A stretch of DNA of 64,000 bases from a virus (Duplodnaviria > Heunggongvirae > Uroviricota > Caudoviricetes). The notes under the pieces were generated by a model. It worked only from the letters and a program-made list of their open reading frames with translations, did no database searches and was not told the DNA's origin. This document shows, piece after piece, positions 38,670 through 59,303 of the stretch. The DNA lies in IMG/VR virus record IMGVR_UViG_3300031555_004037, one strand, 5' to 3'. A program made the position numbers and the translations under genes. Position 1 is the stretch's first letter; each line of letters begins with the position of its first letter.

Positions 38670-38742
38670 TCTCGTTTAGCCCAGTTGGTAGGGCACTTGA
38701 CTTTTAATCAAGGTGTCACGGGTTCAAGTCCCGTAACGGGAA
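38670..38742 (+). tRNA. tRNA-Lys(TTT)
   Basis: Cloverleaf, CTTGA-CT TTT AA-TCAAG. Confidence 0.93.
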
Positions 38743-38888
38743 CTTACCATAAGTGATTATAACTTATTGGTATTTTGCTATGTAGAAAGAATAAAATAGT
38801 AGTTTATTTCTTTCGTCCTCCCTTTATATGCCCACTTAATTGTGGGCATAACCCTTGTGTTATCGTCTTTATAGACTTAACAATATAT

Positions 38889-38959
38889 TGGGGTATGGTG
38901 TAAAGGTAACACATCAGACTTTGACTCTGACATTGTAGGTTCGATTCCTACTACCCTAG
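38889..38959 (+). tRNA. tRNA-Gln(TTG)
   Basis: TCAGA-CT TTG AC-TCTGA. Confidence 0.93.
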
Positions 38960-38984
38960 TTTTATAAAAATTAAATATTTTTTG

Positions 38985-39013
38985 TTTACAAATTAAAAAT
39001 TGTGTGTTATAAT
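38985..39013 (+). promoter_or_regulatory. SigA-type promoter
   Basis: TTTACA-N17-TATAAT, TG extension. Confidence 0.8.
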
Positions 39014-39059
39014 AAATTCAACTTAATCGGAAAAGATAAAGAAAGGTAGGGAATTTATT

Positions 39060-39233
39060 ATGAACAACAAATTTATTGAAACATTGAAAAATTTAGGTAT
39101 TATTTTACTCGTGATGTTAGTTCTTATCGGACTTTACTTCTTGGGTGGTTATGGTAAATCAAATGGTTATTATGCAGCTGACCCTAATGATGTAAATGGA
39201 GATGGTTTCTATTACATTTGGGTAGAAGAATAA
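39060..39233 (+). CDS. Small membrane protein (57 aa)
   Basis: Manual ORF after promoter, SD, one TM. Confidence 0.6.
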   Translation: MNNKFIETLKNLGIILLVMLVLIGLYFLGGYGKSNGYYAADPNDVNGDGFYYIWVEE

Positions 39234-39423
39234 TACATAAATACATAAATGGAGATATACTACTTGGTAGTTGAGTTAATTTCTTTATAGAAATAACTTA
39301 TGAACTCATAATTCATTATCTCTACTAGGGATAGTATAAACTTTAGACCTATTAGTAATCCCAAAAAATATACAAGTGGAATAGGCACACAAAATAAATT
39401 CATAATTATGGAGGAAATTTTTT

Positions 39424-39717
39424 ATGAACAAGACAGAGTTAGTTGCAGCAATGGCAGCAAAGACAGGAGCAACAAAGACAAGCACAGAGCAGGCACTTAA
39501 CGCATTTATGGATGTAGTTAAGGAAACTTGTCAGAGTGGCGATTCAGTAGCCCTCATTGGGTTTGGTACATTCTCTGTTGCAGAGAGAGCAGCACGAAAG
39601 GGTAAGAATCCACAGACAGGCGAGATTATTAAAATAAAGGCTTGTAAAGCACCGAAGTTTAAGGCTGGTAAGGCTTTCAAGGAGCAGGTTAATACAAAGC
39701 CTAAGAAGAAGAAGTAA
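39424..39717 (+). CDS. hup: DNA-binding protein HU
   Basis: MNKTELV, GFGTF, RKGKNPQTG, PKFKAGK. Confidence 0.95.
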   Translation: MNKTELVAAMAAKTGATKTSTEQALNAFMDVVKETCQSGDSVALIGFGTFSVAERAARKGKNPQTGEIIKIKACKAPKFKAGKAFKEQVNTKPKKKK

Positions 39718-39732
39718 TCATTTTATTCTCTT

Positions 39733-39773
39733 AAATTAGTCTGTGTGAATTATTTTGCACAGGCTAATTTTTT
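39733..39773 (+). terminator. Intrinsic terminator after hup
   Basis: AATTAGTCTGTGTG/TGCACAGGCTAATT + T tract. Confidence 0.8.
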
Positions 39774-39804
39774 GGAAAAAATTTGTATTTTTTAGAAAAA
39801 ATTG

Positions 39805-39833
39805 TTGACAAATGAAAAAAATTGTATTATAAT
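39805..39833 (+). promoter_or_regulatory. SigA-type promoter (sigma factor gene)
   Basis: TTGACA-N17-TATAAT. Confidence 0.85.
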
Positions 39834-39885
39834 GTTTATATAGAATGTGAGAAGATTAAAAGATATACAAAGGGAGGCAATTTAT

Positions 39886-40803
39886 ATGGAAAATACAATG
39901 ATTACAATGGAAGAGTATAATGAAACAGAGTATAAGGCATTTGAAATGTCTTTGTTGAATAATGAATTAGTTGGGTTTAATCATTTTATCAATGAAATTA
40001 AAAAATACCCAATACTTTCATCAGAAGAAACTCGAACATTAGGTTTTCTTGCAAGTTGTGGAGATAAAGATGCTAGAGAAAAGTTAATTCTCCACAATAT
40101 TAGACTTGTTTTATTTATTGCAAACAAATTCAAATGGTCATCTCTTGACTTTGAAGATTTAGTATCTTTGGGCAACCAGGGATTACTCATTGCTATTAAC
40201 AAGTTTGACCCTAACAGAAATGTTTTGTTCCATACATACGCATATTCTTGGATTCATCAAAGTATACAGCGTGGCATTGAAGAAATTGGTGAAACCATTA
40301 GAGTATCTGTTTCTGCCAATAATTTATTGGTTAATATTAAGAAAACAGAGCAGAGATTAAGAGAAGAATTTAGAGAAGAGCCTACAATCGAGCAGATTGC
40401 AGAAGAGTTAAATATTCCTGTGGCAAAGGTTAAGAAAACTCTTTCTTATGATACTAAAATCTTATCGTTATCTATGCCTGTGAATACTGATGATAGTGGT
40501 AATAGCACACTTGGAGATTTCCTTGAAATTGATAACAAGTTGTGTCCAGAAGAAGTAGCCACTAGAAATTCAATGCGTGAGGATATTTTAAATATTTTAC
40601 ATAAAAACTTAACTGATAGAGAGGTAAATATTCTTTGTATGAGGAATGGTTGGGATGACGAAAATCCTATGACATTTGAGGCTATTGGACAAGTTTATAA
40701 TATTACAAAAACCAGAGTAAAAACTATCTATGATGGTGCTTTACAGAAATTGGCTAATTGTAATGACGCATCAAATCTCTATGATATGATGTTAGCATCA
40801 TAA
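39886..40803 (+). CDS. Sigma70-family sigma factor
   Basis: HNIRLV, DLVSLGNQGL..A..KFDP, region 3 and 4 HTH. Confidence 0.9.
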   Translation: MENTMITMEEYNETEYKAFEMSLLNNELVGFNHFINEIKKYPILSSEETRTLGFLASCGDKDAREKLILHNIRLVLFIANKFKWSSLDFEDLVSLGNQGLLIAINKFDPNRNVLFHTYAYSWIHQSIQRGIEEIGETIRVSVSANNLLVNIKKTEQRLREEFREEPTIEQIAEELNIPVAKVKKTLSYDTKILSLSMPVNTDDSGNSTLGDFLEIDNKLCPEEVATRNSMREDILNILHKNLTDREVNILCMRNGWDDENPMTFEAIGQVYNITKTRVKTIYDGALQKLANCNDASNLYDMMLAS

Positions 40804-40807
40804 AGTG

Positions 40808-40820
40808 CTATTTAATTATA
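40808..40820 (+). promoter_or_regulatory. CTATTTAATTATA motif
   Basis: Exact copy after sigma gene. Confidence 0.6.
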
Positions 40821-40922
40821 TATATGAAGTTCTCTGTAAACAAATAGGAACAGAGTGGTGGAGTAGTACGGAAGAAACCAGTACGAAGACGAAACAGACT
40901 ATCTTTTGAGATAGTCTAATGT

Positions 40923-41006
40923 GGGGATATGGTGGAACTGACAGACACACAGGACTTAAAATCCTGTGGTAGCAATACCGTGTGGGTTCAAATCCCACTA
41001 TCCCTA
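40923..41006 (+). tRNA. tRNA-Leu(TAA)
   Basis: CAGGA-CT TAA AA-TCCTG, variable arm. Confidence 0.93.
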
Positions 41007-41316
41007 CTCCACTTGTTTGAATTAGTCACTAGGAGAACAAGATACTTGGGTAAAGACTAATACCACGAAGTAAAGACCTATAAGATACTTGGTCAAGTTG
41101 CGTGTCTAGTATATGCACAAGAGAAATGGTAGAATTAATATTCTTCGGAATATCTACTAATATACTATTTTTAAAACTTTATAACTTCTTTGGTATGATT
41201 AGTTTTTCCTTAATCATAGGTTTTTGTTGTTGCAATTTTGAATTGAGATTTTATATAGGTAATTACCTTGAAGTTTTGCTCAATTTAAATAAATAATAAG
41301 GGGAAAATATAAGTAT

Positions 41317-42084
41317 ATGGTAGAAGAACTAAAAGATATTTTTATAAAAGATTTAGATAATTTTAAAGAAAGAAAGTGTAAAGCAAAAGATATTTTCACA
41401 ATAAGAGAAATTCCTAAAAATATTGCTTATGAATTTGTTAGAAAATATCATTATTTAAAAGACGCTAAATTTTTCTGTGTTTATGGTTATGGTCTTTTTT
41501 ATAAGGACGAATTAGTAGGATGTGCTACATATTCTAATCCTCAAGGTGCTGTTGCTTTAAAAGGTTGGTTTGGAGTAGATAATGACTGTCAAACTATTTT
41601 AGAGTTATCAAGATTATGTATGTTACCTATTTTAAATGGTACAAATGCTACAAGTTATCTTTTAGGTAATAGTATGAAAAGATTAAAGGAACATAATATT
41701 CAAGCAGTAATCACACTTGCTGATAGTAATAGACATATAGGTTCAATTTATCAAGTGTGTAATTTTAAGTATTATGGTCTTACAAATAAGAAAACTGATT
41801 TCTGTACTATTGTAAATGGTAAATTAAAGATAAATCCAAGAATGGCAACAAAGGATAAAAAGGGAGTATGGTTGCCTAGAACACAGAAACATAGATATTG
41901 CTATTTGTTGGACAAGTCTTTAAAAATTTTATATGATGAACAACCACATCCAACAGTAAAAGAAACAATAAAATTAGAGTGTTGTGGTGGTACTCATATT
42001 GTTTATGATTATAGATATGATACATATTATACTTGTCCTAGATGTACAGGTAAATTAGAAGAAATAAATATGGAAACAAATTAA
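41317..42084 (+). CDS. Second Mom-like GNAT-fold DNA modification protein with C-terminal Cys motif
   Basis: KYHYL, ELSRL, ITLAD, HIGSIYQVCNFKYYG. Confidence 0.7.
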   Translation: MVEELKDIFIKDLDNFKERKCKAKDIFTIREIPKNIAYEFVRKYHYLKDAKFFCVYGYGLFYKDELVGCATYSNPQGAVALKGWFGVDNDCQTILELSRLCMLPILNGTNATSYLLGNSMKRLKEHNIQAVITLADSNRHIGSIYQVCNFKYYGLTNKKTDFCTIVNGKLKINPRMATKDKKGVWLPRTQKHRYCYLLDKSLKILYDEQPHPTVKETIKLECCGGTHIVYDYRYDTYYTCPRCTGKLEEINMETN

Positions 42085-42101
42085 CTTTATGTTAATTTAT
42101 T

Positions 42102-42175
42102 GTACCCATAGTTCAGTTGGTTAGAACATCTGGCTCATAACCAGACGGTCATAGGTTCGAGTCCTATTGGGTACA
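42102..42175 (+). tRNA. tRNA-CAT (Ile2 or elongator Met)
   Basis: TCTGG-CT CAT AA-CCAGA. Confidence 0.88.
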
Positions 42176-42278
42176 TTCAAGTCTATGTGTTTGAAAAAAC
42201 TAACTAGATTATTTAAACATCAATACGCAACGAAACTGCAAATTTTGATTCCCCACATTGTCTAGGCATAGACTTGAA
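42176..42278 (+). ncRNA. Candidate structured spacer RNA
   Basis: 12-bp perfect closing helix TTCAAGTCTATG/CATAGACTTGAA directly after tRNA. Confidence 0.5.
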
Positions 42279-42311
42279 ATGAAAAAAATTTACAATTTTT
42301 TCAAAAAAGTG

Positions 42312-42340
42312 TTTACAAATTATAAATACTTTGATATAAT
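42312..42340 (+). promoter_or_regulatory. SigA-type promoter
   Basis: TTTACA-N17-TATAAT, TG extension. Confidence 0.8.
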
Positions 42341-42361
42341 AGTTTTTGTTGAGAGAGATAT

Positions 42362-42434
42362 GGTCTGCTGGACGAATGGTTTAAGTTGACACCCTTTCAC
42401 GGTGTAGATACGGGTTCGATTCCCGTGCAGACTA
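42362..42434 (+). tRNA. tRNA-Glu(TTC)
   Basis: ACACC-CT TTC AC-GGTGT. Confidence 0.93.
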
Positions 42435-42465
42435 CTTAAAGTGTATAATAATTAGGAGAAAAGTA

Positions 42466-42678
42466 TTGCGACCAAAACACGAATTAGAGCGAGGAATTAT
42501 TTGTGAAAAATGTCTTAAACATTCATATAAAGGACATTACAAACGAATAAAAACTGAAACTGCGAAGATTGAAAGCACAACAGGAGAATATTATATTATA
42601 CATAGAATGAATTTGTGCAATAAGTGTTTTGAAGAATATACTAATCTAATAAATAAGTTTTTAGATAGTGAAAAATAA
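42466..42678 (+). CDS. Small Zn-finger-like protein
   Basis: CEKC..CNKC, SD. Confidence 0.55.
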   Translation: MRPKHELERGIICEKCLKHSYKGHYKRIKTETAKIESTTGEYYIIHRMNLCNKCFEEYTNLINKFLDSEK

Positions 42679-42682
42679 AGCA

Positions 42683-42695
42683 CTATTTAATTATA
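42683..42695 (+). promoter_or_regulatory. CTATTTAATTATA motif upstream of the giant RNA
   Basis: Exact copy 17 nt before the RNA terminal helix. Confidence 0.6.
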
Positions 42696-42712
42696 TAAGA
42701 AAATACAACTAA

Positions 42713-43432
42713 ATATTGTGTGCCAAATTAAATGTTTAGTGAACCCTAGTGAATGAAGAACTAACCACTCTGCTAGGACAGTAATAAGGCTCAAAAGGTT
42801 GAATAACTCGTTGAAACTCGAATGATAGTTTGAGTGTATGCGAAACTCTTAATATATATTGAAGTTTAAGAGTTGGAGAGCGAATGTTCAAGTTATGTGT
42901 TACTGGTGCTAATCATATTGGTAGGTGTAGTGTGACCTGCTTGTGGGCATCGTAATAGACGCTACCTCGAAAGGGTAGAAGAATCCTGGGAACTCGGTAG
43001 TCTGGTAAACTATTTGAGATAGCAGGAAATACCAAAACAAGATGCTTTGCCTTGATAGTCTAGTGATAGACAGTATAACACAAGCATAAGTCGAAAGGCT
43101 GGATAAGCCAAGTAGCCCAATGGCAATAAAAACATTCTAATTTTGAGTTAATAATTCAAGGAATAAAACAGTCGATAGATATTCTTTACTAACTACATAA
43201 ATTATCTGAATGGTTAGGGTGAAATCTGGGAGTGTCGTTCTCTCACGAGTTTTATAAATACACCAAGTAATAATCCGTGTGTTAAACATCGTGTTTATTC
43301 TATGTATTTTAGCCTAAAAAGCGTGGACTTGCTACCCATTGCTCAGATTTAGGTTCTCGTTAGCATAATAACACCGAGATACGATTAGTAAGTCGAAGGA
43401 CTTCAATAAGCATTTAATTTAGTACACAATAT
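42713..43432 (+). ncRNA. Giant ornate ncRNA (~720 nt), GOLLD/ROOL-class candidate
   Basis: About 25-bp terminal helix, long-range helices, GNRA hairpins, no ORF, in tRNA cluster. Confidence 0.8.
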
Positions 43433-43463
43433 AACGAATTATAAAAGAAAGGGGATAACACTT

Positions 43464-43679
43464 ATGTATAATGATTTTAATATACAGCCAACGATGTGTA
43501 AAATCTGTAAGAGGCAGGCATCCAAAATTGAAGAGTATATTCAGTTAGCCAAAGAATGTGGCTATACAACTGTTGACGAGTGTGTTGAAAACGAAGAAGG
43601 TACATTTAATCCTGATACACGAAAATTTTATTGTACAGAGTGTTATATCAAAATCGGTCAACCTTTGGGAACAGCATAA
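43464..43679 (+). CDS. Small Cys-motif protein
   Basis: CKIC..CTEC, SD. Confidence 0.6.
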   Translation: MYNDFNIQPTMCKICKRQASKIEEYIQLAKECGYTTVDECVENEEGTFNPDTRKFYCTECYIKIGQPLGTA

Positions 43680-43710
43680 GATTTACAAATATATTCTTAT
43701 TAACTATGGA

Positions 43711-43755
43711 AAAGCCTCCTAGATTTTATAATCGTATAAAATTTGGGGGGTTTTT
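43711..43755 (+). terminator. Intrinsic terminator before the tmRNA promoter
   Basis: GCCTCCTAGATTTTATA/TATAAAATTTGGGGGGT + T tract. Confidence 0.75.
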
Positions 43756-43783
43756 ATTTTTCTAAATAATTTAATAAAAATTA

Positions 43784-43812
43784 TTTACAAATTAAAAACA
43801 ATGTGCTATAAT
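43784..43812 (+). promoter_or_regulatory. SigA-type promoter (tmRNA)
   Basis: TTTACA-N17-TATAAT, TG extension. Confidence 0.8.
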
Positions 43813-43837
43813 AATTAAAGTAAAATAAATAAAACTT

Positions 43838-44192
43838 GGGCTTGTCAGGTTTCGACAGGGCAAATGAAGTCAAATAAGGTAGGTAGAGCAGTCGAGTAAC
43901 TCTTAAAACTGTTTCGGTTAAACATAGTCGCAAGACCTTGTATGTGCGCAGCCTAAGCCGATAATTAGGTACTAATATGATATATGATTTGTCTGTTAAT
44001 CAGTTGTATTAGTTCATCATATAACAGAATATCCGAAGATTGCAAGGAGAAATAATATTAAAAACGCAATACATCTTGTTGTGGCTAATATCGTTTAAGG
44101 TGTAAAGAAAAAGAATCAATTAGCAAAAGTGCCTATGAATAACTTGTTTGGTGGAAATGTTTTGGACAGGGGTTCGACTCCCCTCAAGTCCA
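43838..44192 (+). ncRNA. ssrA: tmRNA, tag (A)ARPCMCAA
   Basis: GGGCTTG/CAAGTCC acceptor with G3-U70, T-arm, UAGUC-GCA resume site, tag 43930-43956. Confidence 0.93.
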
Positions 44193-44195
44193 CTA

Positions 44196-44302
44196 AAAAT
44201 CGGTAATTTATATGTACGCAAACATTAATTATCGGTAAATGAACCTAACAAAAGTGGAAACAAAAATGGTTCAAACTTCTAGGGATTCCACCCCTAGATT
44301 TT
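44196..44302 (+). ncRNA. Candidate multi-stem spacer RNA
   Basis: GGTAATT/AATTATC, TGAACC/GGTTCA, TCTAGGG/CCCTAGA helices. Confidence 0.35.
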
Positions 44303-44304
44303 AT

Positions 44305-44390
44305 GGAGTGTTGGCTCAACTGGTAAAGCATCGGTCTTGAAAATCGACATCCGTTAATTCGGTATCTGGGTTCGACTCCCAGGCACTCCG
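44305..44390 (+). tRNA. tRNA-Ser(TGA)
   Basis: TCGGT-CT TGA AA-ATCGA, variable arm, G73. Confidence 0.92.
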
Positions 44391-44392
44391 TT

Positions 44393-44470
44393 ATATGAGT
44401 TATTGTTAATGCACAATATTAAATAAGGTTATCTCACGATTGATATTAAATGGTCAGCCTTAACTCATAT
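44393..44470 (+). ncRNA. Candidate structured spacer RNA
   Basis: 10-bp closing helix ATATGAGTTA/TAACTCATAT. Confidence 0.45.
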
Positions 44471-44474
44471 TTAT

Positions 44475-44547
44475 GCACAGTAGGTGATGCGGTTCGTTGC
44501 ACCTGGCTTATATCCAGCGATTCTGGGTTCGACTCCTAGACTGTGTA
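44475..44547 (+). tRNA. tRNA-Ile(TAT)
   Basis: GCACAGT/ACTGTGT acceptor, CTGG-CT TAT AT-CCAG. Confidence 0.75.
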
Positions 44548-44550
44548 CTA

Positions 44551-44621
44551 GCAATGTAGGGTATAGGCAATCTTGTAGTATAACTGTTGCCTATTACAGA
44601 CTATAAGATTCCTTACATTGT
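44551..44621 (+). ncRNA. Pseudoknotted hairpin upstream of smpB
   Basis: Two 11-bp helices plus TAGGC bulge pairing with loop GCCTA. Confidence 0.55.
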
Positions 44622-44650
44622 TGTGAATTTATATTTGGAGGATTTCTAAA

Positions 44651-45100
44651 ATGAAGAAAAATATAACTATTGAAAATAGAAAAGCAAAATATGATTACTT
44701 TATTGAAGAAACCCTTGAATGTGGTATAGAATTAATAGGTAATGAAGTAAAGTCTATCAAAAATGGTAATTGTTCAATAGTGGACGCTTATTGTAAAGTT
44801 GTAAATAGACAGTTATATATCTATAATATGTTTATTAAAAGATATGAAACAACAAATAAATTTGATACTCTTGAAGAAAATAGAGATAGAAAATTACTTG
44901 CACACAAAAAAGAAATTATTAAATTAGATAATACTACTAATTTAGACGGAATGACTTTAATTCCACTTAAAATCTATGATAATGGTAGTAAAATTAAAGT
45001 TTTAGTTGGTGTTTGTAAAGGAAAACATACTTATGATAAGAGAAATTCCTTAAAAGAAAAACAATTAAAACGAGAAATTGATAGAAATATGAAAGGATAA
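44651..45100 (+). CDS. smpB: SsrA-binding protein
   Basis: NRKAKYDYF, GIELIGNEVKS, GKHTYDKR. Confidence 0.95.
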   Translation: MKKNITIENRKAKYDYFIEETLECGIELIGNEVKSIKNGNCSIVDAYCKVVNRQLYIYNMFIKRYETTNKFDTLEENRDRKLLAHKKEIIKLDNTTNLDGMTLIPLKIYDNGSKIKVLVGVCKGKHTYDKRNSLKEKQLKREIDRNMKG

Positions 45101-45143
45101 GTATTAGAAAATTTTGAATTTATTCAAATTGATTAATTTTTTG

Positions 45144-45172
45144 TTTACAAACTGATTTAACTATGATATACT
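45144..45172 (+). promoter_or_regulatory. SigA-type promoter
   Basis: TTTACA-N17-TATACT, TG extension. Confidence 0.8.
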
Positions 45173-45201
45173 AATTATAATGAAAATTATATTTAAGTTA
45201 T

Positions 45202-45272
45202 GCCTCATTAGTTCAATGGTAGAACATCGGCTTTGTAACCCGAAAATATTGGTTCGATTCCAATATGAGGCT
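45202..45272 (+). tRNA. tRNA-Thr(TGT)
   Basis: Cloverleaf; C31-C39 mismatch. Confidence 0.85.
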
Positions 45273-45273
45273 T

Positions 45274-45347
45274 TGCGGGATGACGAGTAATGGATGCTCA
45301 CCAGGCTCATAACCTGGGATATGTGGGTTCGATTCCCACTCCCGCTA
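45274..45347 (+). tRNA. tRNA-fMet-like (CAT)
   Basis: Unpaired 1-72, GCGGGA/TCCCGC acceptor. Confidence 0.85.
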
Positions 45348-45376
45348 CTAAAAATTTTATAATTGGAGGTAATACT

Positions 45377-46222
45377 TTGAAATCAAAAAAAGAGTTTAAG
45401 AGTTTTTTCAAAACAGTTGGTGGAAATGAGGGTAATAAATGTCATTATCCTACAAGATTAGACACTTATGGTTGTGGTTGCAGTCACGATTGTTCATACT
45501 GTTATGCAAAATCACTTCTTGATTTTAGACATTTATGGAATCCAGAAGACCCTGCTATTGCTGATATTGAAAAAATTCGTAAAAAAATTTCCAAATTACC
45601 AAAAGATATGGTAGTTCGTTTAGGTGGAATGACAGATTGTTTTCAACCTATTGAAAAAACACATCGAGTTACATACGAAACCATTAAGGCATTGAATGAA
45701 AATGGTATTTCTTATTTAATTGTAACCAAGAGTGCTATTATTGCAGACGAAGAATATCTTGAAATTTTGGATAAGGATTTGGCACATATTCAGATTACAG
45801 TTACAACAACTGATGACGAATTATCAAAAACTTATGAAAAGGCAAGTGTTCCTAGTGAGCGTATTAAGGCTATTGAAAAACTTCAAGAAATGGGATTTGA
45901 TGTTACTTTAAGATTATCTCCATTTATTCCAGAATATGTAGACCTTTCCATTATAAATAATGTAAAGTGCGATAAGATTTTGGTAGAGTTTTTAAGAGTT
46001 AATACTTGGATTCAGAAATGGTTTAATATTGATTATTCTGATTATACAGTAAAGCAGAGTGGTTATAGACATTTACCATTAGAAAAGAAAAAGGAATACA
46101 TATCTAAAATTACAGGATATAAAGAAATGACGGTTTGTGAAGACGAAAGTGACGCTTATGAATATTGGAAAGAACACTTTAATCATAATCCTAATGATTG
46201 TTGTAATTTAAGAAAAGTATAA
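45377..46222 (+). CDS. Radical SAM protein (spore photoproduct lyase-like)
   Basis: CSHDCSYC, VRLGGMTD; TTG start after GGAGGT (the ORF-track start lies in a tRNA). Confidence 0.8.
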   Translation: MKSKKEFKSFFKTVGGNEGNKCHYPTRLDTYGCGCSHDCSYCYAKSLLDFRHLWNPEDPAIADIEKIRKKISKLPKDMVVRLGGMTDCFQPIEKTHRVTYETIKALNENGISYLIVTKSAIIADEEYLEILDKDLAHIQITVTTTDDELSKTYEKASVPSERIKAIEKLQEMGFDVTLRLSPFIPEYVDLSIINNVKCDKILVEFLRVNTWIQKWFNIDYSDYTVKQSGYRHLPLEKKKEYISKITGYKEMTVCEDESDAYEYWKEHFNHNPNDCCNLRKV

Positions 46223-46316
46223 ATTTACATAGACATAAATTAAAATGCTTATAATGTTTATGTCGATAAAATAGTTTACCAACATTCTATCTAAAAGTTG
46301 GTTAGCATATATTTAT

Positions 46317-46388
46317 TCTCATATAGCTCAATGGTAGAGCACACGACTGTTAATCGTGGGGTTGTAGGTTCGAGTCCTACTGTGAGAG
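46317..46388 (+). tRNA. tRNA-Asn(GTT)
   Basis: CACGA-CT GTT AA-TCGTG. Confidence 0.93.
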
Positions 46389-46430
46389 TTGAAACACTTA
46401 ATTAAATACCTTCATTAGTGTTTTTTAGTA

Positions 46431-52008: not shown

Positions 52009-52074
52009 TTTATGCTAGTTTATGGCTAACTAGGATAAAAAAAGCCAAATTAAAAATTAGGGGAGTACAATGAA

Positions 52075-52551: not shown

Positions 52552-52564
52552 GGGAGAATAAAAA

Positions 52565-52786
52565 ATGGAACTTATATTTAATAACAAAGATAATTTGGTA
52601 ACTAAAAATGATAGTGTTATAATTATGCAAGAACTTGATGGTCGTGATAGAGTTATATCTCACGGAATTGTGTCTTATATAGAGAATGACAAGGCTATTA
52701 TATATGTAGATAATGACGATTTTGTATCATTCTTTCCTTTTTATATTGTTAAGACATCAGAAATGATTAAGGTTTCTAACTTATAA
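52565..52786 (+). CDS. Hypothetical protein
   Basis: ORF, SD. Confidence 0.55.
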   Translation: MELIFNNKDNLVTKNDSVIIMQELDGRDRVISHGIVSYIENDKAIIYVDNDDFVSFFPFYIVKTSEMIKVSNL

Positions 52787-52789
52787 TAT

Positions 52790-52863
52790 TGGGTAGTAGT
52801 TCAGTTTGGTAGAACGCTAGTTTTGGGCACTAGAGGTCGCAGGTTCAAGTCCTGTCTATCCAA
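52790..52863 (+). tRNA. tRNA-Pro(TGG), second copy
   Basis: CTAGT-TT TGG GC-ACTAG. Confidence 0.92.
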
Positions 52864-52870
52864 CTTATAT

Positions 52871-52942
52871 AGCAGTATCGCCAAGTGGTAAGGCAACATC
52901 TTCATACGGTGTCCATCATCGGTTCAAATCCGATTACTGCTA
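52871..52942 (+). tRNA. tRNA-Met(CAT)
   Basis: ACATC-TT CAT AC-GGTGT. Confidence 0.82.
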
Positions 52943-52946
52943 TTAT

Positions 52947-53019
52947 ATTCCCATAGGCTAATGGATTAGACCTTTCGGCTACGAACCGAAAAATGCAAGT
53001 TCGACTCTTGCTGGGAATA
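52947..53019 (+). tRNA. tRNA-Arg(ACG)
   Basis: TTCGG-CT ACG AA-CCGAA. Confidence 0.92.
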
Positions 53020-53030
53020 CTAACGAAACA

Positions 53031-53043
53031 CTATTTAATTATA
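53031..53043 (+). promoter_or_regulatory. CTATTTAATTATA motif
   Basis: Exact copy after tRNA-Arg. Confidence 0.6.
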
Positions 53044-53127
53044 ATGTATCGTATACAAAAATTTAAAATATTAGTATAATAAATACATTGACAACTAAAT
53101 ATTGAAAATAAGGAAAAAGGGGTTTAA

Positions 53128-53457
53128 GTGAATATGGAAATTGTATCGACTTTTTTAGTAAAACATCCAAAAAAATTTCTATCAAAGAAATCTACTATTC
53201 AAGTATCTATTACAAAAGAAGATATTATATATTATTTTGAACACATTGCTACACCTTATGATTTGAAATATATTTATCAAAATAGAAATGATGATAATAA
53301 TTTAAAAAATTGTTTACAAAAAATTATAATAAGTAATACAAAATTCAATGAACTTAAATCTTTAAAAATATTAGAATTAATAGTTGACGAAAGTAATTTA
53401 GGGAAATTTGAAATAATTATTAAAGATATTGCTAATAAAAAAGGTTTAATTTATTAA
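53128..53457 (+). CDS. Hypothetical protein
   Basis: ORF. Confidence 0.5.
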   Translation: MNMEIVSTFLVKHPKKFLSKKSTIQVSITKEDIIYYFEHIATPYDLKYIYQNRNDDNNLKNCLQKIIISNTKFNELKSLKILELIVDESNLGKFEIIIKDIANKKGLIY

Positions 53458-53511
53458 AATCTTCTTATTAACTTTATTATACGGACATCATTTAGAAAGG
53501 AGAGAATAATA

Positions 53512-53706
53512 ATGGCAAACAATTATATTATCAAAACTTCTGATAATGAATCGTTTTGTGGTTGGAACTCATTAGGACAAATTGTTATGAATGGTGCTGA
53601 TAGAGATTTCTTAACCTATTCAATGTCAAGAACATTAGCAGAACGAACAATTCCTAAAATTGAAGCATTTACAGGAAAGAAATGTGTTGTTGTAAAAGTT
53701 TCATAA
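53512..53706 (+). CDS. Hypothetical protein
   Basis: ORF, strong SD. Confidence 0.6.
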   Translation: MANNYIIKTSDNESFCGWNSLGQIVMNGADRDFLTYSMSRTLAERTIPKIEAFTGKKCVVVKVS

Positions 53707-53732
53707 CTTGTGGATTATTTCCACATAAATAC

Positions 53733-53806
53733 ACTACCCTAGTTCAGTTGGTTAGAACATTCGTCTGATAAGCGAAAGGTCTTGAGTTCGATTCTCAAGG
53801 GTAGTA
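53733..53806 (+). tRNA. tRNA-Ile(GAT)
   Basis: TTCGT-CT GAT AA-GCGAA. Confidence 0.93.
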
Positions 53807-53822
53807 TTTATAGGTTAGATAT

Positions 53823-54023
53823 TTGGGGGTATTTTTTATGAGTATGACTGCAAATCGTAAAAAGGTTTATAAACGCTCTTGGTTTAATAGAGAAATTAAA
53901 ATTGATATGAGAAATCGTAGAAAAGAGTACAATCGTAAAGTGCGTTATGCTAAAATTACCGAAAATTCTAGTCCTAAAGAATACAAACAGTTAATGAAAC
54001 TGTGTTGGAATACAATGTCTTAA
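53823..54023 (+). CDS. Small basic protein
   Basis: Arg/Lys-rich ORF; probable start 53838. Confidence 0.55.
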   Translation: MGVFFMSMTANRKKVYKRSWFNREIKIDMRNRRKEYNRKVRYAKITENSSPKEYKQLMKLCWNTMS

Positions 54024-54035
54024 TTTTTGATTTAT

Positions 54036-54188
54036 AAATTGAGTGGAGTTCAGTTTAACATAAGAACCAAGAACGCAACAGCTAGAAAACTTAAATATCA
54101 ATGAAAGTTATGTTATATGACAAGATGACTTGCAAGAAACATTTGTAACGAACAGTACATAATGAGTAGCAGATTGATGGCTCAATTT
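54036..54188 (+). ncRNA. Candidate structured spacer RNA
   Basis: AAATTGAGT/GCTCAATTT closing, AACATAA/TTATGTT. Confidence 0.4.
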
Positions 54189-54197
54189 ATAATATAT

Positions 54198-54270
54198 GCC
54201 GATTTAACTCATCTGGGAGAGTGCCAACCTTACAAGTTGGAAGTGATAGGTTCAAGTCCTATAATCGGTA
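54198..54270 (+). tRNA. tRNA-Val(TAC)
   Basis: CCAAC-CT TAC AA-GTTGG. Confidence 0.93.
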
Positions 54271-54272
54271 CT

Positions 54273-54367
54273 ACCGAAATGATGGGGAATTGGAATACCC
54301 AAGAAGAAACTTTATTAGTTTTGGACGCACTTATATGTGTATGTAGGTTCAAGTCCTACTTTCGGTA
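54273..54367 (+). tRNA. Atypical Leu-type tRNA body with TAT-centred loop and extra linker
   Basis: ACCGAAA/TTTCGGT, GGG/CCC D-stem, GAAAC-TTTATTA-GTTTT, variable arm. Confidence 0.55.
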
Positions 54368-54368
54368 C

Positions 54369-54741
54369 TAGCGGGGAAAGTATGACTCGCTCTATAAAAA
54401 ATCAAACATCCTTTAAGGGTACTTGCCACTTAAAGTGAGTCCTAAAGCCCACGATACTAATGGACTATGCGTGAATGTCTTATTTCTATATTAGAAATAT
54501 TGCTAAAAAGTATCTGAAACGCTAGGCATCCAGTTGAGAGGATAAAAACCAACAAGTTCGGTTAAAAGGGAAAACACAACCATTAGATTGCCCTATACAC
54601 CACTTATACAAAGGTCGTTGTATTAAAATAAAAGACAACTTTAGAGTCATTTATCTTTAAACCAAGAAAAGTGTGAGAGAATAATTCTCAAGGATAGGTG
54701 TGTATTGGTTGCGATAAACCAATGGTTTAAAATTATCGCAA
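54369..54741 (+). ncRNA. Candidate ~370-nt structured RNA
   Basis: Long-range ATGACTC/GAGTCAT and TATACACC/GGTGTGTA, several hairpins, no plus-strand ORF. Confidence 0.55.
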
Positions 54742-54766
54742 ATTAAATAAGAAAGGTTGTATGAAT

Positions 54767-54937
54767 ATGGATAAAAACACTTGTTATAATTGTTGTTATT
54801 TTGATTTACAAGATAATCACAAAACACAAGATGAGAAACACCCAAATTCAATACAATGGAGTCATATTTGTACAGAAAAATATATTGAAAAATATGCAAG
54901 TGATAAGGCTTGTATAAAACATTTTATATCTAAATAG
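54767..54937 (+). CDS. Small Cys-containing protein
   Basis: Manual ORF MDKNTCYNCC, SD. Confidence 0.5.
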   Translation: MDKNTCYNCCYFDLQDNHKTQDEKHPNSIQWSHICTEKYIEKYASDKACIKHFISK

Positions 54938-54953
54938 GGGAGTGTAAATTAAA

Positions 54954-55184
54954 ATGACAGTAGAACAAGCAGTAAAGAAATATAAATTAGAGCCTTTAAA
55001 TGTTTATACAGCAAAAGCAAAGGCAAAAGAATTAAATGTTGATGAAGTTTTATATATGAATGTACAAAAGAATAAATATGCTTATGTTATTAAAAATGGT
55101 TCACAACATTTTCTCTATTCAGATGAAAAGAGTTTATATACTAAAATGTATAAAGGTTTAAAAATAGAACCATTACAATCTTAA
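54954..55184 (+). CDS. Hypothetical protein
   Basis: ORF, SD. Confidence 0.55.
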   Translation: MTVEQAVKKYKLEPLNVYTAKAKAKELNVDEVLYMNVQKNKYAYVIKNGSQHFLYSDEKSLYTKMYKGLKIEPLQS

Positions 55185-55211
55185 AAACTAAATAATTGGA
55201 GGGAATTTATT

Positions 55212-55604
55212 ATGTGGAATCTTAAAGACTTGGAAAAAGAAACAAGTAAACTTATCAATAAATATCCAAAAGAGAAAGAGAAAATTCTAAAATATAAGAA
55301 AGATTTTATAAATATGTATAATGACTATATAAATGTTAATGCTATTTATAAAATTATGGAAAATGAAATTGTACCGAATTTTAGAAATAAGATTGAGTAT
55401 TTTGATGAGGTTGATAGAATTATTGACCTTATGGAAAAGGTTACATATATTTTTGATAGTAGCATTGAAGAGTTTAAAGAACATATTTTTATTGAAGAGT
55501 ATTTTCCGTCTATGCGTAATTGGATTGACGGATTAGAATTAGATTCATTAGAAGACTTACATCATATTCAATTAGCGATTTTGGAGATTGATAATAAATG
55601 TTAA
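55212..55604 (+). CDS. Hypothetical protein
   Basis: ORF, SD. Confidence 0.6.
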   Translation: MWNLKDLEKETSKLINKYPKEKEKILKYKKDFINMYNDYINVNAIYKIMENEIVPNFRNKIEYFDEVDRIIDLMEKVTYIFDSSIEEFKEHIFIEEYFPSMRNWIDGLELDSLEDLHHIQLAILEIDNKC

Positions 55605-56122
55605 GAGAACACTTTGGAGAATTACCAACATTAAATACTAATGATATATTATGTTCTATAACAAAATGCTTTAATCAAGAAAGAGATTGGACTTGCTGTA
55701 TTGCTTGTTTAAGAACAATTAGTTCAAATACATTAGGAACAGAAAAAGAGTTAATTGATACATATAATTTTACACCAGGTCCTTATTATTCCAAAGATAT
55801 AAAAAATAAACACATATTAGATAATTATGATGTTATTTATGGGTGTGATATTGAAAATAAAACACCAAAGATGTTATGTAAACTACTTAATGACTATAAT
55901 ATAATGATAGAAACAATGTTAAATTATGACCATTGGTTAGTTGTATTAGGATATTTTACAAACAATACAAATGAGATAAATAAACATCAAATATTATTAT
56001 ATGACCCTTATTTTAATAATGTAAGATTAGAAAATGCCGAAGAAATTTTTAGTATGTGGGTAAGTGGAGAGCATACTATAAATAATATTAAATGTGATTT
56101 TATTGCAATTAGGAGAGATTAA
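55598..56122 (+). CDS. Papain-like C39-type cysteine peptidase
   Basis: NQ..WTCCIAC, DHWLVVLGY, LYDPY. Confidence 0.65.
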   Translation: MLREHFGELPTLNTNDILCSITKCFNQERDWTCCIACLRTISSNTLGTEKELIDTYNFTPGPYYSKDIKNKHILDNYDVIYGCDIENKTPKMLCKLLNDYNIMIETMLNYDHWLVVLGYFTNNTNEINKHQILLYDPYFNNVRLENAEEIFSMWVSGEHTINNIKCDFIAIRRD

Positions 56123-56124
56123 AT

Positions 56125-56286
56125 ATGAAGAAAGAATATATACTTATCCCATTAACAATAATTATTTCTTTTGTATTAGGATATATTATAGGAAGTGATT
56201 TTGGTTGGTCTAGTGCATATAGAGAATTAACAGATTCTTCTGCTTGTAGAATGACCAAACGAAATTATCATAAACAAATAGGTTAA
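56125..56286 (+). CDS. Small membrane protein
   Basis: Manual ORF, one TM, SD. Confidence 0.5.
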   Translation: MKKEYILIPLTIIISFVLGYIIGSDFGWSSAYRELTDSSACRMTKRNYHKQIG

Positions 56287-56375
56287 GAACAAATGATAAC
56301 CTCTTGATTATGGACGCATAATTGAGTAGTAAAATGTGTAGTGGGGCAGTACGACTTTAAATACTGTCAGATTAT

Positions 56376-56447
56376 TGCCCTATGTTGTAATGGTTAGCAA
56401 ACAAGTCTTTGACACTTGGGGTAAGAGTTCGATTCTCTTTGGGGCTG
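56376..56447 (+). tRNA. tRNA-Gln(TTG), second copy
   Basis: CAAGT-CT TTG AC-ACTTG. Confidence 0.9.
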
Positions 56448-56451
56448 CTAT

Positions 56452-56602
56452 GGGTATTAAGTGCAACGAAATATAGATAAATTCTAGGATAGTTTATAAA
56501 GTAGTATTTGGAACGCACAAGATATATAGCAAAGTAATAATTCTTCCTAGTAGATTATTATGATTATGATATATTGAGCAAGTTCAAATCTTGTAATACT
56601 CT
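56452..56602 (+). ncRNA. Expanded tRNA-like RNA with enlarged D- and anticodon arms
   Basis: GGGTATT/AATACTC, GTGC/GCAC, GATATAT/ATATATT, GCAAG-TTCAAAT-CTTGT; loops CTAGGA/TCCTAG. Confidence 0.75.
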
Positions 56603-56607
56603 CTTAT

Positions 56608-56681
56608 GGGTGTGTAAAGATAATTGGAAATCGCTCGGACTCCAAATCCGTAGTACGAGGGTTCGATTCCTTCCTCACCTG
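56608..56681 (+). tRNA. tRNA-Trp(CCA)
   Basis: CGGA-CT CCA AA-TCCG, G73. Confidence 0.9.
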
Positions 56682-56779
56682 TTATTAAACACACTAAATT
56701 AAATACATTAGCATCAAATCCTGCATATTATAGAAGAGTTTTTGATTATGCTTATTAGATTTGATAGAAAGGAATTTAT

Positions 56780-57214
56780 ATGAATTATATTGGAATTGAC
56801 CCTGGTAAAAATGGTGGAATTGCAGTTATATCTGATAATGGAGATATTATTAGTTTACATACTTTTTCAGAAGAAATTATAGTAGATGTATTACATAAAC
56901 ATAGAGATTGTAAGTGTGTTTTAGAAAAAGTAAATGCTATGCCAGGTCAGGGTGTGGTATCAATGTTTAATTTTGGAGTTAATTTTGGTTTTATTCAAGG
57001 TGTGTTAAAATCAAATGAAATTCCTTTTGAATTAACTCCCCCTCAAAAATGGAAGAAAGAATTTAGTGTTACAAAAGATAAAAATACATCTATTGAGGTA
57101 GCAAAAAGATTATTTCCTAATGTAAATCTAAAAGCAACTGATAGATGTAAAAAAGACCACGATGGTTTAGCAGAATCACTTTTAATGGCAGAATATGCTA
57201 GAAGAAAATTATAA
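56780..57214 (+). CDS. RuvC-like Holliday junction resolvase
   Basis: IGIDPG, VLEKV, MFNFG, P.KWK, DGLAESLL. Confidence 0.85.
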   Translation: MNYIGIDPGKNGGIAVISDNGDIISLHTFSEEIIVDVLHKHRDCKCVLEKVNAMPGQGVVSMFNFGVNFGFIQGVLKSNEIPFELTPPQKWKKEFSVTKDKNTSIEVAKRLFPNVNLKATDRCKKDHDGLAESLLMAEYARRKL

Positions 57215-57221
57215 TATATAT

Positions 57222-57254
57222 GTCCTCGTAGTCTAATGGATAGGCAACGGACTT
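57222..57254 (+). pseudogene. 5' half of a tRNA truncated in the anticodon loop
   Basis: GTCCTCG-TA-GTCT-AATGGAT-AGGC-A-ACGGA-CTT, no 3' half. Confidence 0.7.
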
Positions 57255-57258
57255 ATAA

Positions 57259-57331
57259 GCACCAATAGCTCAATGGAGAGAGCAATGGGTTTCTACCCCA
57301 TAGGTTGTGAGTTCAAATCTTACTTGGTGCA
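57259..57331 (+). tRNA. tRNA-Arg(TCT)
   Basis: ATGGG-TT TCT AC-CCCAT. Confidence 0.9.
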
Positions 57332-57349
57332 TTTTTAGGAGAGATTTAT

Positions 57350-57909
57350 ATGATTGCTTATTATGACGGAATGAAAATTTATTTTAATGGTCTTTATCCA
57401 GAAGTTAATTTTCCAACTCATCCAAAGGCTCGTTCTAATGGTCGAGTATATATTCATATATTACAAATGGAGAAAAAATTAAAAAGACCATTAACTAATG
57501 AAGAGGTTGTACACCACAAAGACCAAAATAGAGAAAATTTTGAATTTGATAATTTATGGTGTTTTGCAACAAGGGCAGACCACGCTCGTTTTCATAATGG
57601 TGGAATTGCTATTAAAAAGGAGATGTATACATAAGTATATATTCAAAAAATACACAAAAAACCTGTAAAAAATGTGGAAAATTTATAAATTACCAAAGTA
57701 AAAATTATTGTGTTTGTTGTTATCAAAATTCATTAAAAATTGATGGTGGATTACGAAAAGTAATTAAACCAACAAAAGAAGAATTAGAAAAACTAATATA
57801 TACTGATTCTTTTTTATCCATTGGTAAAAAATATGGTGTTAGTGATAATGCTGTAAGAAAATGGTGTAAATCTTATAATTTACCCTATCGTAAAAAAGAT
57901 TTGATATAG
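57350..57909 (+). pseudogene. Frameshifted HNH homing endonuclease (HNH + Zn finger + HTH)
   Basis: VHHKDQNRENF..NL; one extra A at 57614-57618 joins it to CKKCG..KKYGVSDNAVRKW. Confidence 0.8.
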
Positions 57910-57938
57910 ATTTTAAAATCTATTGATAATATATAATA

Positions 57939-58079
57939 ATTATAGTGATGGAATAAGTAGACATTAATAAATGAATAAGTTGTAGTAGGAGTCGTTAAAT
58001 ACCTTATGTCCTTTCCGTATAATATACGATACCCTTTCGGAATCTACAATATGTAAGGTGTAAATCCTTACCTATAATT
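57939..58079 (+). ncRNA. Expanded tRNA-like RNA (Leu-type D-arm)
   Basis: ATTATAG/CTATAAT, TGATG/CATTA, GTTGTAG/CTACAAT, GTAAGG-TGTAAAT-CCTTAC. Confidence 0.6.
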
Positions 58080-58087
58080 ATTATTTT

Positions 58088-58173
58088 GCTGTGTTCCCAT
58101 AATTGGTATTGGAGCAGATTGCTAATCTGTCGGTCATTTATTTGGCTTGTGGGTTCGAGTCCCTCACACAGCG
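58088..58173 (+). tRNA. tRNA-Ser(GCT)
   Basis: GCAGA-TT GCT AA-TCTGT, variable arm. Confidence 0.92.
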
Positions 58174-58200
58174 TTTATAAATTTAAAAAGGAGATTAAAT

Positions 58201-59187
58201 ATGTTTAAAAAATCACTTATAACAACACTATGTTTTATTACAATTATGGCTTGTATGACAGGTTGTAATAAAAAAACCACAACATCAGAAACAATAAATT
58301 CAGAAAATTCAAGTGTAATTGAAGAAACAACTGAAACAGTTGTTGAAGATGAAAACACAGACACAGAAGATGTAGTAACAAAATCTAAAATGCTTTATTT
58401 AAATAGTGATATGTTATCAACTGACGAATTTGTACCTAATAGACCAGAAAAGGTATTAAATACCGATATTACATTACCTATTTCAAAAGATTTTAGTGAG
58501 TTTAATGATTACCAAGTAAAAGAATATATGAATAAAGAATTTGAACAATGTACTTGGGAAGATATTTATGTAAATAATTATCCTGTATCAAGACTTGTAT
58601 TTGGGGATGAATATGGTGTAGAGGCAAGTGCTTATTTTGAACTTTATACACCTAATACTGTGGATGTACATAATGCTGATGAATATATAGCATTTCTACA
58701 ATTTGATTTTCCTGTAAGAGAAATTGATAGAATGACTTTAACATCAAATGCTGAATATATTGATAATAGTATTTATACACTTGCATTTATTAGTAATTCT
58801 GTATTAGGAAATGATGAAGAATGTGTAAGTGGTGTTGCTTTAACAGATATAATTGATTATTATGGAAAACCTAATTATATAAATTTTGATTATGATGAAG
58901 AAACACTAAAAGAAAAAATTAGTAATTTTACAAATGAAGATTATGTAATTGAAGATAAAAAAATTGAATTTACTTATACATTGGGTTGGATATATGAAGA
59001 TTGTTATATGGAGGTAGAAGTATCAGAAAGACAATATGGAGAAAAAATGAATACTGATATTCCATATCAAATTAGAGTAAATTCTATATCATTTTTAACT
59101 TATAATGATGATGTTGTTAATGCAGCAAATACAATAAATGATAGGGATTTATTTATTAAAGTATATGACGAAGTTGTAAATAATTAA
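58201..59187 (+). CDS. Acidic lipoprotein
   Basis: MTGC lipobox; start moved from ORF track. Confidence 0.75.
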   Translation: MFKKSLITTLCFITIMACMTGCNKKTTTSETINSENSSVIEETTETVVEDENTDTEDVVTKSKMLYLNSDMLSTDEFVPNRPEKVLNTDITLPISKDFSEFNDYQVKEYMNKEFEQCTWEDIYVNNYPVSRLVFGDEYGVEASAYFELYTPNTVDVHNADEYIAFLQFDFPVREIDRMTLTSNAEYIDNSIYTLAFISNSVLGNDEECVSGVALTDIIDYYGKPNYINFDYDEETLKEKISNFTNEDYVIEDKKIEFTYTLGWIYEDCYMEVEVSERQYGEKMNTDIPYQIRVNSISFLTYNDDVVNAANTINDRDLFIKVYDEVVNN

Positions 59188-59199
59188 ATATTATAATTT

Positions 59200-59232
59200 A
59201 TAAGGGCTTATAATTAGCCCTTATATTTTTTT
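59200..59232 (+). terminator. Intrinsic terminator
   Basis: TAAGGGCT/AGCCCTTA + T tract. Confidence 0.7.
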
Positions 59233-59303
59233 AGGGAATTGGTGTAATAGTAGCACGATAGACTCTGACTCTATAAATAGGGGTTCAACTCCCTTATTCC
59301 CTA
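59233..59303 (+). tRNA. tRNA-Gln(CTG)
   Basis: ATAGA-CT CTG AC-TCTAT. Confidence 0.92.

Follow-up and report, generated by a model that had tools for sequence, protein, structure and literature searches.

The DNA analysed here, hereafter the window, is a stretch of 64,000 nt (about 26% G+C, with nearly all genes on the plus strand) from the IMG/VR virus record IMGVR_UViG_3300031555_004037, and it carries a tRNA/RNA island in which most spacers between tRNA genes are themselves candidates for RNA genes (Table 1). The explanation that we favour, with a probability of roughly 0.6, is that the island is a cluster of RNA genes in which some 18 small structured-RNA genes, arranged as cassettes and presumably released by tRNA processing, accompany the tRNAs. 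Two classes would be represented: tRNA look-alikes with an acceptor stem and a T-arm and without the 7-nt anticodon loop (E10, E11, E13, E14b, E16a and E17), and multi-helix RNAs with a terminal closing helix of 7–13 bp (E1–E9).

The evidence came mainly from comparison with relatives, which were metagenome or Logan contigs of the same gene order found via the SmpB protein. Those used were L223/L224 (SmpB 69% identical, 38 tRNAs), L220, L228, L230, L231, L233, L237 and L227, the last with 99.95% identity to the window, together with the more distant L163, an array of 36 tRNAs that came from a metagenome scan and has an E7 homologue. In the alignment of E7 (three sequences, L163 included) 96.7% of cells were paired, against 33–49% when the partners were slid, and 20 pairs had changed on both sides versus 0–5 in the slid controls; none of 500 shuffles scored as high. 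The corresponding values were 96.3% versus 35–51% for E11, with 14 versus 0–4 pairs changed on both sides, and 94.1% versus 35–55% for E2, with 7 versus 0–2; the interior of E2 is nearly invariant and its closing helix covaries. The loop-loop contact that the first-pass annotation had proposed for E11 covaries, being CTAGGA/TCCTAG in the window, CTAGGA/TTCTAG in L220 and CTAGAA/TTCTAG in L228, with the G-U pair of L220 as the intermediate of the change. In pairwise comparison with its L223 counterpart, which is 74% identical, E9 has 11 double and 2 single compensatory changes. The double and single changes number 5 and 2 in E10 (compared with L220) and 3 and 1 in E13, and none of these elements had a broken pair. 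In E3, compared with L223, no double change and four one-sided changes that keep pairing were found, again with none broken. The crossing helix of E15a is GTCCAC/GTGGAC in the window and GTCCAG/CTGGAC in L230. In E6, two pairs that belong to different inner helices have both partners substituted with respect to L223, and the E8 of L223 is closed by another 10-bp helix, which occupies the corresponding outer place. The earlier proposal of structured RNAs in the spacers was borne out in part, with compensatory changes in E2, E7, E9, E10, E11, E13 and E15a, and conservation compatible with the fold in E3, E5 and E8; in total, no fewer than nine small RNAs have counterparts in relatives and helices maintained by compensatory mutation. 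In addition, G-U pairs are many in the covarying helices; as they would be A-C mismatches on the other strand, selection probably acts on the plus-strand RNA. These comparisons support the view that the spacers encode real, selected, plus-strand structured RNAs, and the decisive support is the comparison with relatives and not folding energy.

The level of conservation points in the same direction. Compared with L223, E2, E3, E5, E7, E8 and E24 were 86–94% identical, versus 69–81% for SmpB, YqeY, Metallophos and other protein genes, and these spacer elements are thus as conserved as the protein genes, or more so. By element, identity to L223 was 94% for E2 (over 70 nt), 86% for E3 and 89% for E7, which has in its interior two long hairpins and an internal T-loop-like motif. 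E24 was 92% identical to L223 and 98% to L230, and its flanking genes are less conserved. The identity to L230 was found although the SmpB proteins of both phages are only 68% identical, and may reflect either a very strong constraint or a recent transfer. The neighbours of the elements differ between genomes: E2 is followed by tRNA-Asn and E8 lies between tRNA-Tyr and tRNA-Asp in L223, E5 comes after tRNA-Phe in a relative, and E11 after tRNA-Glu in L228. Despite the swapped neighbour, the elements are still 0–8 nt from tRNAs, at distances like those between tRNA genes. Some are gained or lost together with the adjacent tRNA when compared with L223, namely E1 with tRNA-Met, as part of a block orf64/Mom-like gene/tRNA-Met/E1 that is missing there, and E4 with tRNA-Glu(ctc). 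In their distribution, the elements behave as cassettes.

All eight closing helices described in the first-pass annotation were found where it had placed them, and two proved longer than first given (46431–46562 extended to 46428–46565, with 11 bp, and 54036–54188 to 54032–54192, with 12 bp). The observation that they begin at the tRNA ends was equally sound: in a hand count from the tRNA and gap maps, a closed or tRNA-like element lies 0–8 nt from the tRNA end in 10 of the 12 spacers that separate two tRNAs and measure 60 nt or more, the two exceptions being 38744–38887 and 47754–47863. An unbiased scan of the 34 non-coding island gaps of at least 60 nt added the helices of E7 (12 bp) and E10 (13 bp), and 7 of these 34 gaps, versus 1 of 13 control gaps, contained perfect inverted repeats (p ≤ 0.05) whose arms enclose 30 nt or more. 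Folding z-scores against dinucleotide shuffles, taken at the coordinates of the first-pass annotation, were mixed for the eight spacers (−5.5, −1.9, −4.6, −4.1, −0.4, −1.1, −2.2 and −0.3, in order of position). The mean z was −1.7 for the 34 island gaps, −2.8 for 13 ordinary intergenic gaps elsewhere in the window and −0.6 for coding windows. Since the control gaps average −2.8, because terminators lie in them, the shuffle z-score does not discriminate, and the minimum free energy z-score was dropped as a discriminator after this intergenic control. Within the island, the strongly folding gaps 39718–39846, 43680–43837 and 44196–44303 are simply a terminator followed by a promoter. The long-range closure statistic was better than folding energy, and the single-sequence evidence exceeds chance only partially.

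Membership of known families was then considered. In E10, E11, E13, E14b, E16a and E17 a T-arm (GTTCRANYC loop) directly adjoins the acceptor on its 3' side, and the 7-bp acceptor and T-arm expected of a tRNA are recognizable; the T-loop of E10 is the variant GTGTAAATC. A scan for the T-loop motif returned tRNA-like or T-loop elements at the positions of E13, E14b, E7, E17, E16a and E11. None of the six look-alikes was called by ARAGORN or reached 29 bits with RF00005, only E16a giving a score (19.7), and E10, E11, E13, E14b and E17 had no match to that model at E ≤ 1. A 5-bp anticodon stem with a 7-nt loop was not found in the look-alikes: domains of 40–130 nt replace the anticodon arm in E11, E17 and E13, and in the 7-nt loop that E16a may have, position 37 is a pyrimidine. 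E11 and E17 are the only paralogous pair, every other element being single-copy with a unique sequence, and the loops GCTAGA and TCTAGC of E17 are mutually complementary. The insert of E13 is 53 nt shorter in L223. These elements sustain the earlier proposal that expanded tRNA-like RNAs lie among the tRNAs. Comparison of positions 38000–60500 with Rfam 15, which took in self-cleaving ribozymes, drum, YrlA and RNase P RNA, gave no family at E ≤ 1 beyond ROOL, tmRNA and tRNAs, and no credible match at E ≤ 10 was obtained for 49100–49600 and 54260–54770.

The RNAs of about 720 and 370 nt that the first-pass annotation saw in the array belong to the known families ROOL (RF03087) and tmRNA (RF00023). 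Their expression, and that of two other regions, was examined in three metatranscriptome runs of two studies, as contigs assembled from total-RNA libraries. Depths were 88 to about 1200 for ROOL (contigs at 88 and at 717–1231), 139–225 for tmRNA (139 in the contig 43828–44186), 50, 6.7 and 43.5 for the RNA at 54376–54701, which is among the island's deepest in the three metatranscriptomes, and 11–285 for 49214–49587, the region of E8. Coding bins in the same runs gave 0–7, and the DNA run was flat at 6–9. The large RNAs of the island are expressed, and their depths exceed the coding bins by factors of 10–1000. At the tRNA-like inserts, where coverage was poor, the RNA contigs revealed neither splicing nor a circular joint. 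The tmRNA has its own promoter (43784) and its own terminator (44278–44298), and its tag according to ARAGORN is ARPCMCAA*; the tag of the tmRNA in the distant relative L001 is ARPVAVAA*. The RNA at 54376–54701 had no Rfam match at E ≤ 10, and in L220 the two halves of the 54.4–54.7-kb region are in swapped order. Its opening motif is slightly reminiscent of RNase P RNA, with no support from any model, and identity of 54369–54741 with RNase P RNA or drum was discarded for want of support in Rfam.

The first-pass annotation had also invoked polycistronic transcripts cut at tRNA ends, but the island as a whole is not a single polycistron. It holds several strong sigma-70-type promoters (38985, 39805, 42312, 43784 and 45144), terminators (43710–43755, 44278–44298 and 50956–50988) and about 25 protein genes. 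On the explanation that we favour, the tRNA genes, ROOL, tmRNA and the roughly 18 structured-RNA genes would be interchangeable cassettes in several sigma-70-type operons of an uncultivated huge gut phage. In tRNAs without an encoded CCA, RNase Z matures the 3' end and RNase P the 5' end. None of the island tRNAs encodes CCA, the base after the discriminator being usually T, and release of the spacer RNAs by tRNA processing is for this reason plausible. RNase Z would trim the upstream tRNA just behind its discriminator, and RNase P would free the 5' end of the tRNA that comes next, both cuts leaving a spacer RNA with tails of 0–8 nt beyond a closing helix that would shield the ends from exonucleases; the tRNA look-alikes would in turn be processed by RNase P, RNase Z and the CCA-adding enzyme. 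As to function, we suggest with low confidence that the spacer RNAs are stable trans-acting RNAs engaging the host tRNA or translation machinery or its tRNA-targeting defences. The most natural guess for the tRNA-like class is mimicry of substrates of the tRNA machinery, and roles as decoys, antitoxins or scaffolds are pure speculation.

Several points weigh against this explanation. RNA ends cannot be read from assembled contigs, and the total-RNA libraries behind them under-sample RNAs below 150 nt. The alignments hold two to three sequences, which is below R-scape grade. Ordinary intergenic regions of this phage fold as well as the spacers do, and the z-scores of E5, E6 and E9 are unremarkable. 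The closing helix of E5 never varies, and is thus uninformative, and that of E6 is not conserved. E1, E4 and E14b are known from one sequence each, no homologue having been found for E1 and E4 among the relatives nor for E14b. Finally, E3 is missing from L239 and L231 and hence dispensable in close relatives.

The alternative that survives best, although we consider it unlikely, is that the hairpins are only cis-acting processing or insulation elements (RNase III-type sites or folding insulators) that are degraded after cleavage and have no trans function. E3 is essentially one bulged hairpin, its stem comprising about 25 bp (13 + 11 + 4 pairs), and we take it to resemble the intercistronic RNase III sites of phage T7. 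The gain and loss of elements between close relatives would also suit such a role, as would the fact that no small discrete RNA was seen in the RNA contigs, which under-sample this size class. However, the unpaired interiors are highly conserved (nearly invariant in E2 and 91–98% identical in E5 and E24), and three-way junctions, pseudoknots and loop-loop contacts are present, none of which an insulator needs. Quite unlikely, in our opinion, is the more ambitious proposal that huge gut phages have a modular set of twelve or more undescribed structured-RNA families, kissing anticodon-less tRNA mimics among them, which act in tRNA-equivalent cassettes beside ROOL and tmRNA as an RNA counter-defence or translation-takeover system, for example by decoying tRNA-cleaving defence nucleases or by joining the ROOL cage as its cargo or partners.

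Decay and chance were also considered: tRNA genes in decay or disrupted by insertions would account for the tRNA-like elements, and inverted repeats arising by chance in AT-rich DNA for the other closing helices. Acceptor and T-arm remnants without an anticodon loop are what decay would leave, a few inverted repeats of 10–12 bp within 150 nt are estimated per 20 kb at 26% G+C, and the weak z of E5, E6 and E9 agrees with chance. Nevertheless, the expanded domains covary and persist among phages that share no more than 54–71% identity in SmpB, E11 and E17 keep the same architecture and loop complementarity, and the inverted repeats are more frequent in island gaps than in control gaps. This explanation is very unlikely as a whole: it is largely refuted for E2, E7, E9, E10, E11 and E13, and possible for E1, E4, E6 and E14b.

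An even smaller probability was given to the elements being remnants of mobile DNA, left either by miniature transposons, as their terminal inverted repeats, or by the ends of cassettes that shuffle tRNA genes through homing. Their presence varies and their positions shift between relatives, a frameshifted HNH homing-endonuclease gene adjoins E10, and variant-strain contigs cease to match the window exactly at 46428. But the elements are single-copy and unique except for the E11/E17 pair, no target-site duplications were seen, and the terminal helices carry compensatory substitutions and G-U pairs, which argues for selection on RNA pairing and not on a transposase-binding sequence; moreover, mobility of the cassettes by homing would be compatible with a cluster of RNA genes. 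The least probable explanation is that some elements are cis-regulatory leaders, riboswitches or attenuators, such as E3 for SmpB and the domain 54530–54736 for orf58 and orf76. In its favour, the end of E3 is 27 nt ahead of the start codon of SmpB with its ribosome-binding site, and downstream of the 54.5-kb domain come first a covarying hairpin and next a ribosome-binding site. Against it, L223 has a promoter between E3 and SmpB, the halves of the 54.4–54.7-kb region are swapped in L220, the RNA at 54376–54701 is far deeper than the downstream open reading frames (ORFs), and most elements lie between two tRNAs.

Table 1. Features of the tRNA/RNA island in window coordinates; z, folding z-score against dinucleotide shuffles
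Feature	Coordinates	Strand	Description	z
tRNA/RNA island	38670..59304	+	33 ARAGORN tRNAs and one Rfam-only tRNA, structured RNAs, about 25 ORFs	
E1, closed RNA	42177..42277	+	11–12-bp closing helix, starts directly after tRNA-Met	−5.5
ROOL RNA	42721..43421	+	RF03087, 197.6 bits versus gathering score 99.1, model positions 1–574 (full model)	
tmRNA	43838..44195	+	RF00023, 101.5 bits versus gathering score 47; also called by ARAGORN	
E2, three-way-junction RNA	44393..44470	+	Fills tRNA-Ser/tRNA-Ile spacer	−1.9
E3, long bulged hairpin	44549..44623	+	Between tRNA-Ile and SmpB ribosome-binding site	−4.6
SmpB gene	44651..45100	+	tmRNA partner; PF01668, E = 1e-50	
E4, closed RNA	46428..46565	+	11-bp closing helix, 8 nt before tRNA-Glu(ctc)	−4.1
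E13, tRNA-like RNA	46805..46999	+	7-bp acceptor, D-arm, T-arm; insert of about 130 nt replaces anticodon and variable arms	
E5, conserved element	47219..47333	+	Closing helix; 91% identity to L223, 71% to L228	−0.4
E14b, tRNA-like element	47530..47672 (approx.)	+	10-bp closing helix, T-arm beside its 3' strand	
E6, element after tRNA-Phe	47940..48036	+		−1.1
E24, 103-nt element	48697..48800	+	Directly before tRNA-Ala	
E7, 148-nt RNA	48886..49033	+	Fills tRNA-Ala/tRNA-Pro spacer; 12-bp closing helix	−5.0
E15a, pseudoknotted element	49140..49205	+	After tRNA-Pro	
E8, closed RNA	49284..49377	+	Core 87% identical to L223	−2.2
E17, anticodon-less tRNA-like RNA	51068..51220	+	E11 paralogue; 46.4 bits with E11-built covariance model, over full model	
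E9, closed RNA	54032..54192	+	12-bp closing helix, 5 nt before tRNA-Val	−0.3
E16a, aberrant tRNA-like RNA	54272..54368	+	Abuts tRNA-Val; RF00005 19.7 bits (gathering 29); 8-bp acceptor, canonical T-arm	
Abundant unclassified RNA	54376..54701	+	About 270–330 nt; RNA contigs; 88% identity to L220 over 207 nt	
E11, anticodon-less tRNA-like RNA	56452..56602	+	Acceptor, T-arm, expanded D and anticodon domains, loop-loop contact	
E10, tRNA-like element	57933..58084	+	13-bp closing helix and T-arm variant; 2 nt before tRNA-Ser(gct)	

ARAGORN identified 33 tRNAs and one tmRNA within the island, and Rfam an additional tRNA at 56608–56681. The proteins encoded there include SmpB, HU, a sigma-70 factor, Mom-like, radical-SAM, YgjV-like and YqeY-like proteins, a metallophosphoesterase, and RuvC-like and HNH proteins. 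A promoter module TTTACA-17 nt-TATAAT with the extended −10 TG is present at 38985, 42312 (where it follows E1), 43784, 45144 and 50443; the same TTTACA/TATAAT intergenic module occurs at no fewer than seven further sites of the window outside the island, and also in relatives. The spacer 38744–38887, between tRNA-Lys and tRNA-Gln, contains three local hairpins (z = −5.8) and has neither a closing helix nor a homologue among the relatives. In E5, a 20-codon ORF was considered as a possible small peptide and discarded, as it lacks a ribosome-binding site and is cut short in L228. In runs X17 and X18, the RNA contigs of a variant strain carry E4 and tRNA-Glu with eight differences, and their match to the window begins exactly at 46428, a position that probably marks a cassette boundary. 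The HNH_3 homing-endonuclease gene at 57350–57909 is interrupted by a stop after 94 codons; its remainder, up to about 57909, lies in a different frame and has a C-terminal part like a helix-turn-helix. The gene may be either a frameshifted pseudogene or a case of programmed frameshifting. Among the relatives, L228 has an ochre-suppressor-like tRNA (anticodon TTA) at 8149–8221, and L230 a tRNA-like element with two tandem T-arms at 5340–5450.

Searches of databases delimited the distribution of the island. No relative was found among GenBank phages, where only tRNAs matched, and no close relative in IMG/VR, where SmpB retrieved only two distant loci, one of them from a phage with ROOL and tmRNA but scattered tRNAs. 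The scan of metagenome contigs with SmpB gave at most 62% identity. Exact-pattern scans of IMG/VR for E1, E7, E2 and the 54.5-kb RNA yielded nothing or one chance match, and an E11 15-mer searched against genome contigs gave chance matches only, none scoring with the E11 model. The Mom-like gene (41317–42084) and the radical-SAM gene (45377–46222) have homologues with 60–84% identity in numerous unrelated phage contigs of IMG/VR that have no tRNA array. The 136 IMG/VR loci with radical-SAM and Mom-like proteins are not syntenic, and more than one tRNA was present in only 1 of 80 radical-SAM loci. Both genes apparently travel between unrelated phages, and appear to be mobile accessory genes put into the island.

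Phage tRNA islands are usually annotated as tRNAs and junk spacers. The spacers of this one seem to be under selection as strong as that on phage proteins, and several have complex folds. If they are released and stable, the non-coding RNA arsenal of huge phages would be far larger than catalogued. ROOL, an abundant cage-forming RNA whose function is unknown, would gain co-encoded candidate partners, and the anticodon-less mimics could serve as natural test cases for recognition by RNase P, RNase Z, the CCA-adding enzyme and tRNA-targeting immune nucleases.

Comparable arrangements exist in other systems. In mitochondria, polycistronic transcripts are punctuated by tRNAs, and in Escherichia coli the spacers of tRNA operons (3' external and internal transcribed spacers, 3'ETS and ITS) are functional sponge RNAs. 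The likeness lies in cleavage by RNase P and RNase Z at the edges of tRNAs, which sets the ends of the neighbours, as it would in the island; however, those systems release mRNAs or short unstructured sponges, whereas the island elements are elaborately folded and covarying. The RNAs RNAC and RNAD of phage T4 are reportedly matured from tRNA precursor transcripts. With them the island shares the presence of non-tRNA RNAs among phage tRNA genes, but T4, likened here by description only, has two such RNAs and the island about 18, of several unrelated architectures that include anticodon-less look-alikes. RNAC and RNAD, also termed species 1 and 2 of the T4 tRNA cluster, are small stable RNAs of unknown function (PMC9697503). 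ROOL and GOLLD, whose function is likewise unknown, occur in phages and prophages, often near tRNA islands (PMC5737381, PMC12286853). The island holds a true ROOL, and its spacer RNAs measure 65–160 nt versus 580–800 nt for ROOL and GOLLD, none of them matching either model. The look-alikes share with the tRNA-like domain of tmRNA and with the YrlA (Y RNA-like) RNAs, which are tRNA mimics (PMC4201824), a module of acceptor stem and T-arm without a decoding anticodon. They differ from both in having neither an mRNA-like domain nor a Ro-binding helix, in the lack of any Rfam match at E ≤ 1, and in the kissing contact between their expanded D and anticodon domains, a feature not reported for the tmRNA domain or YrlA. 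The presence of ROOL beside tRNA islands and of stable RNAs in the T4 tRNA cluster is thus already known; new are the number of cassettes, about 18, and the occurrence of tRNA mimics that kiss and have no anticodon, with families outside Rfam 15.

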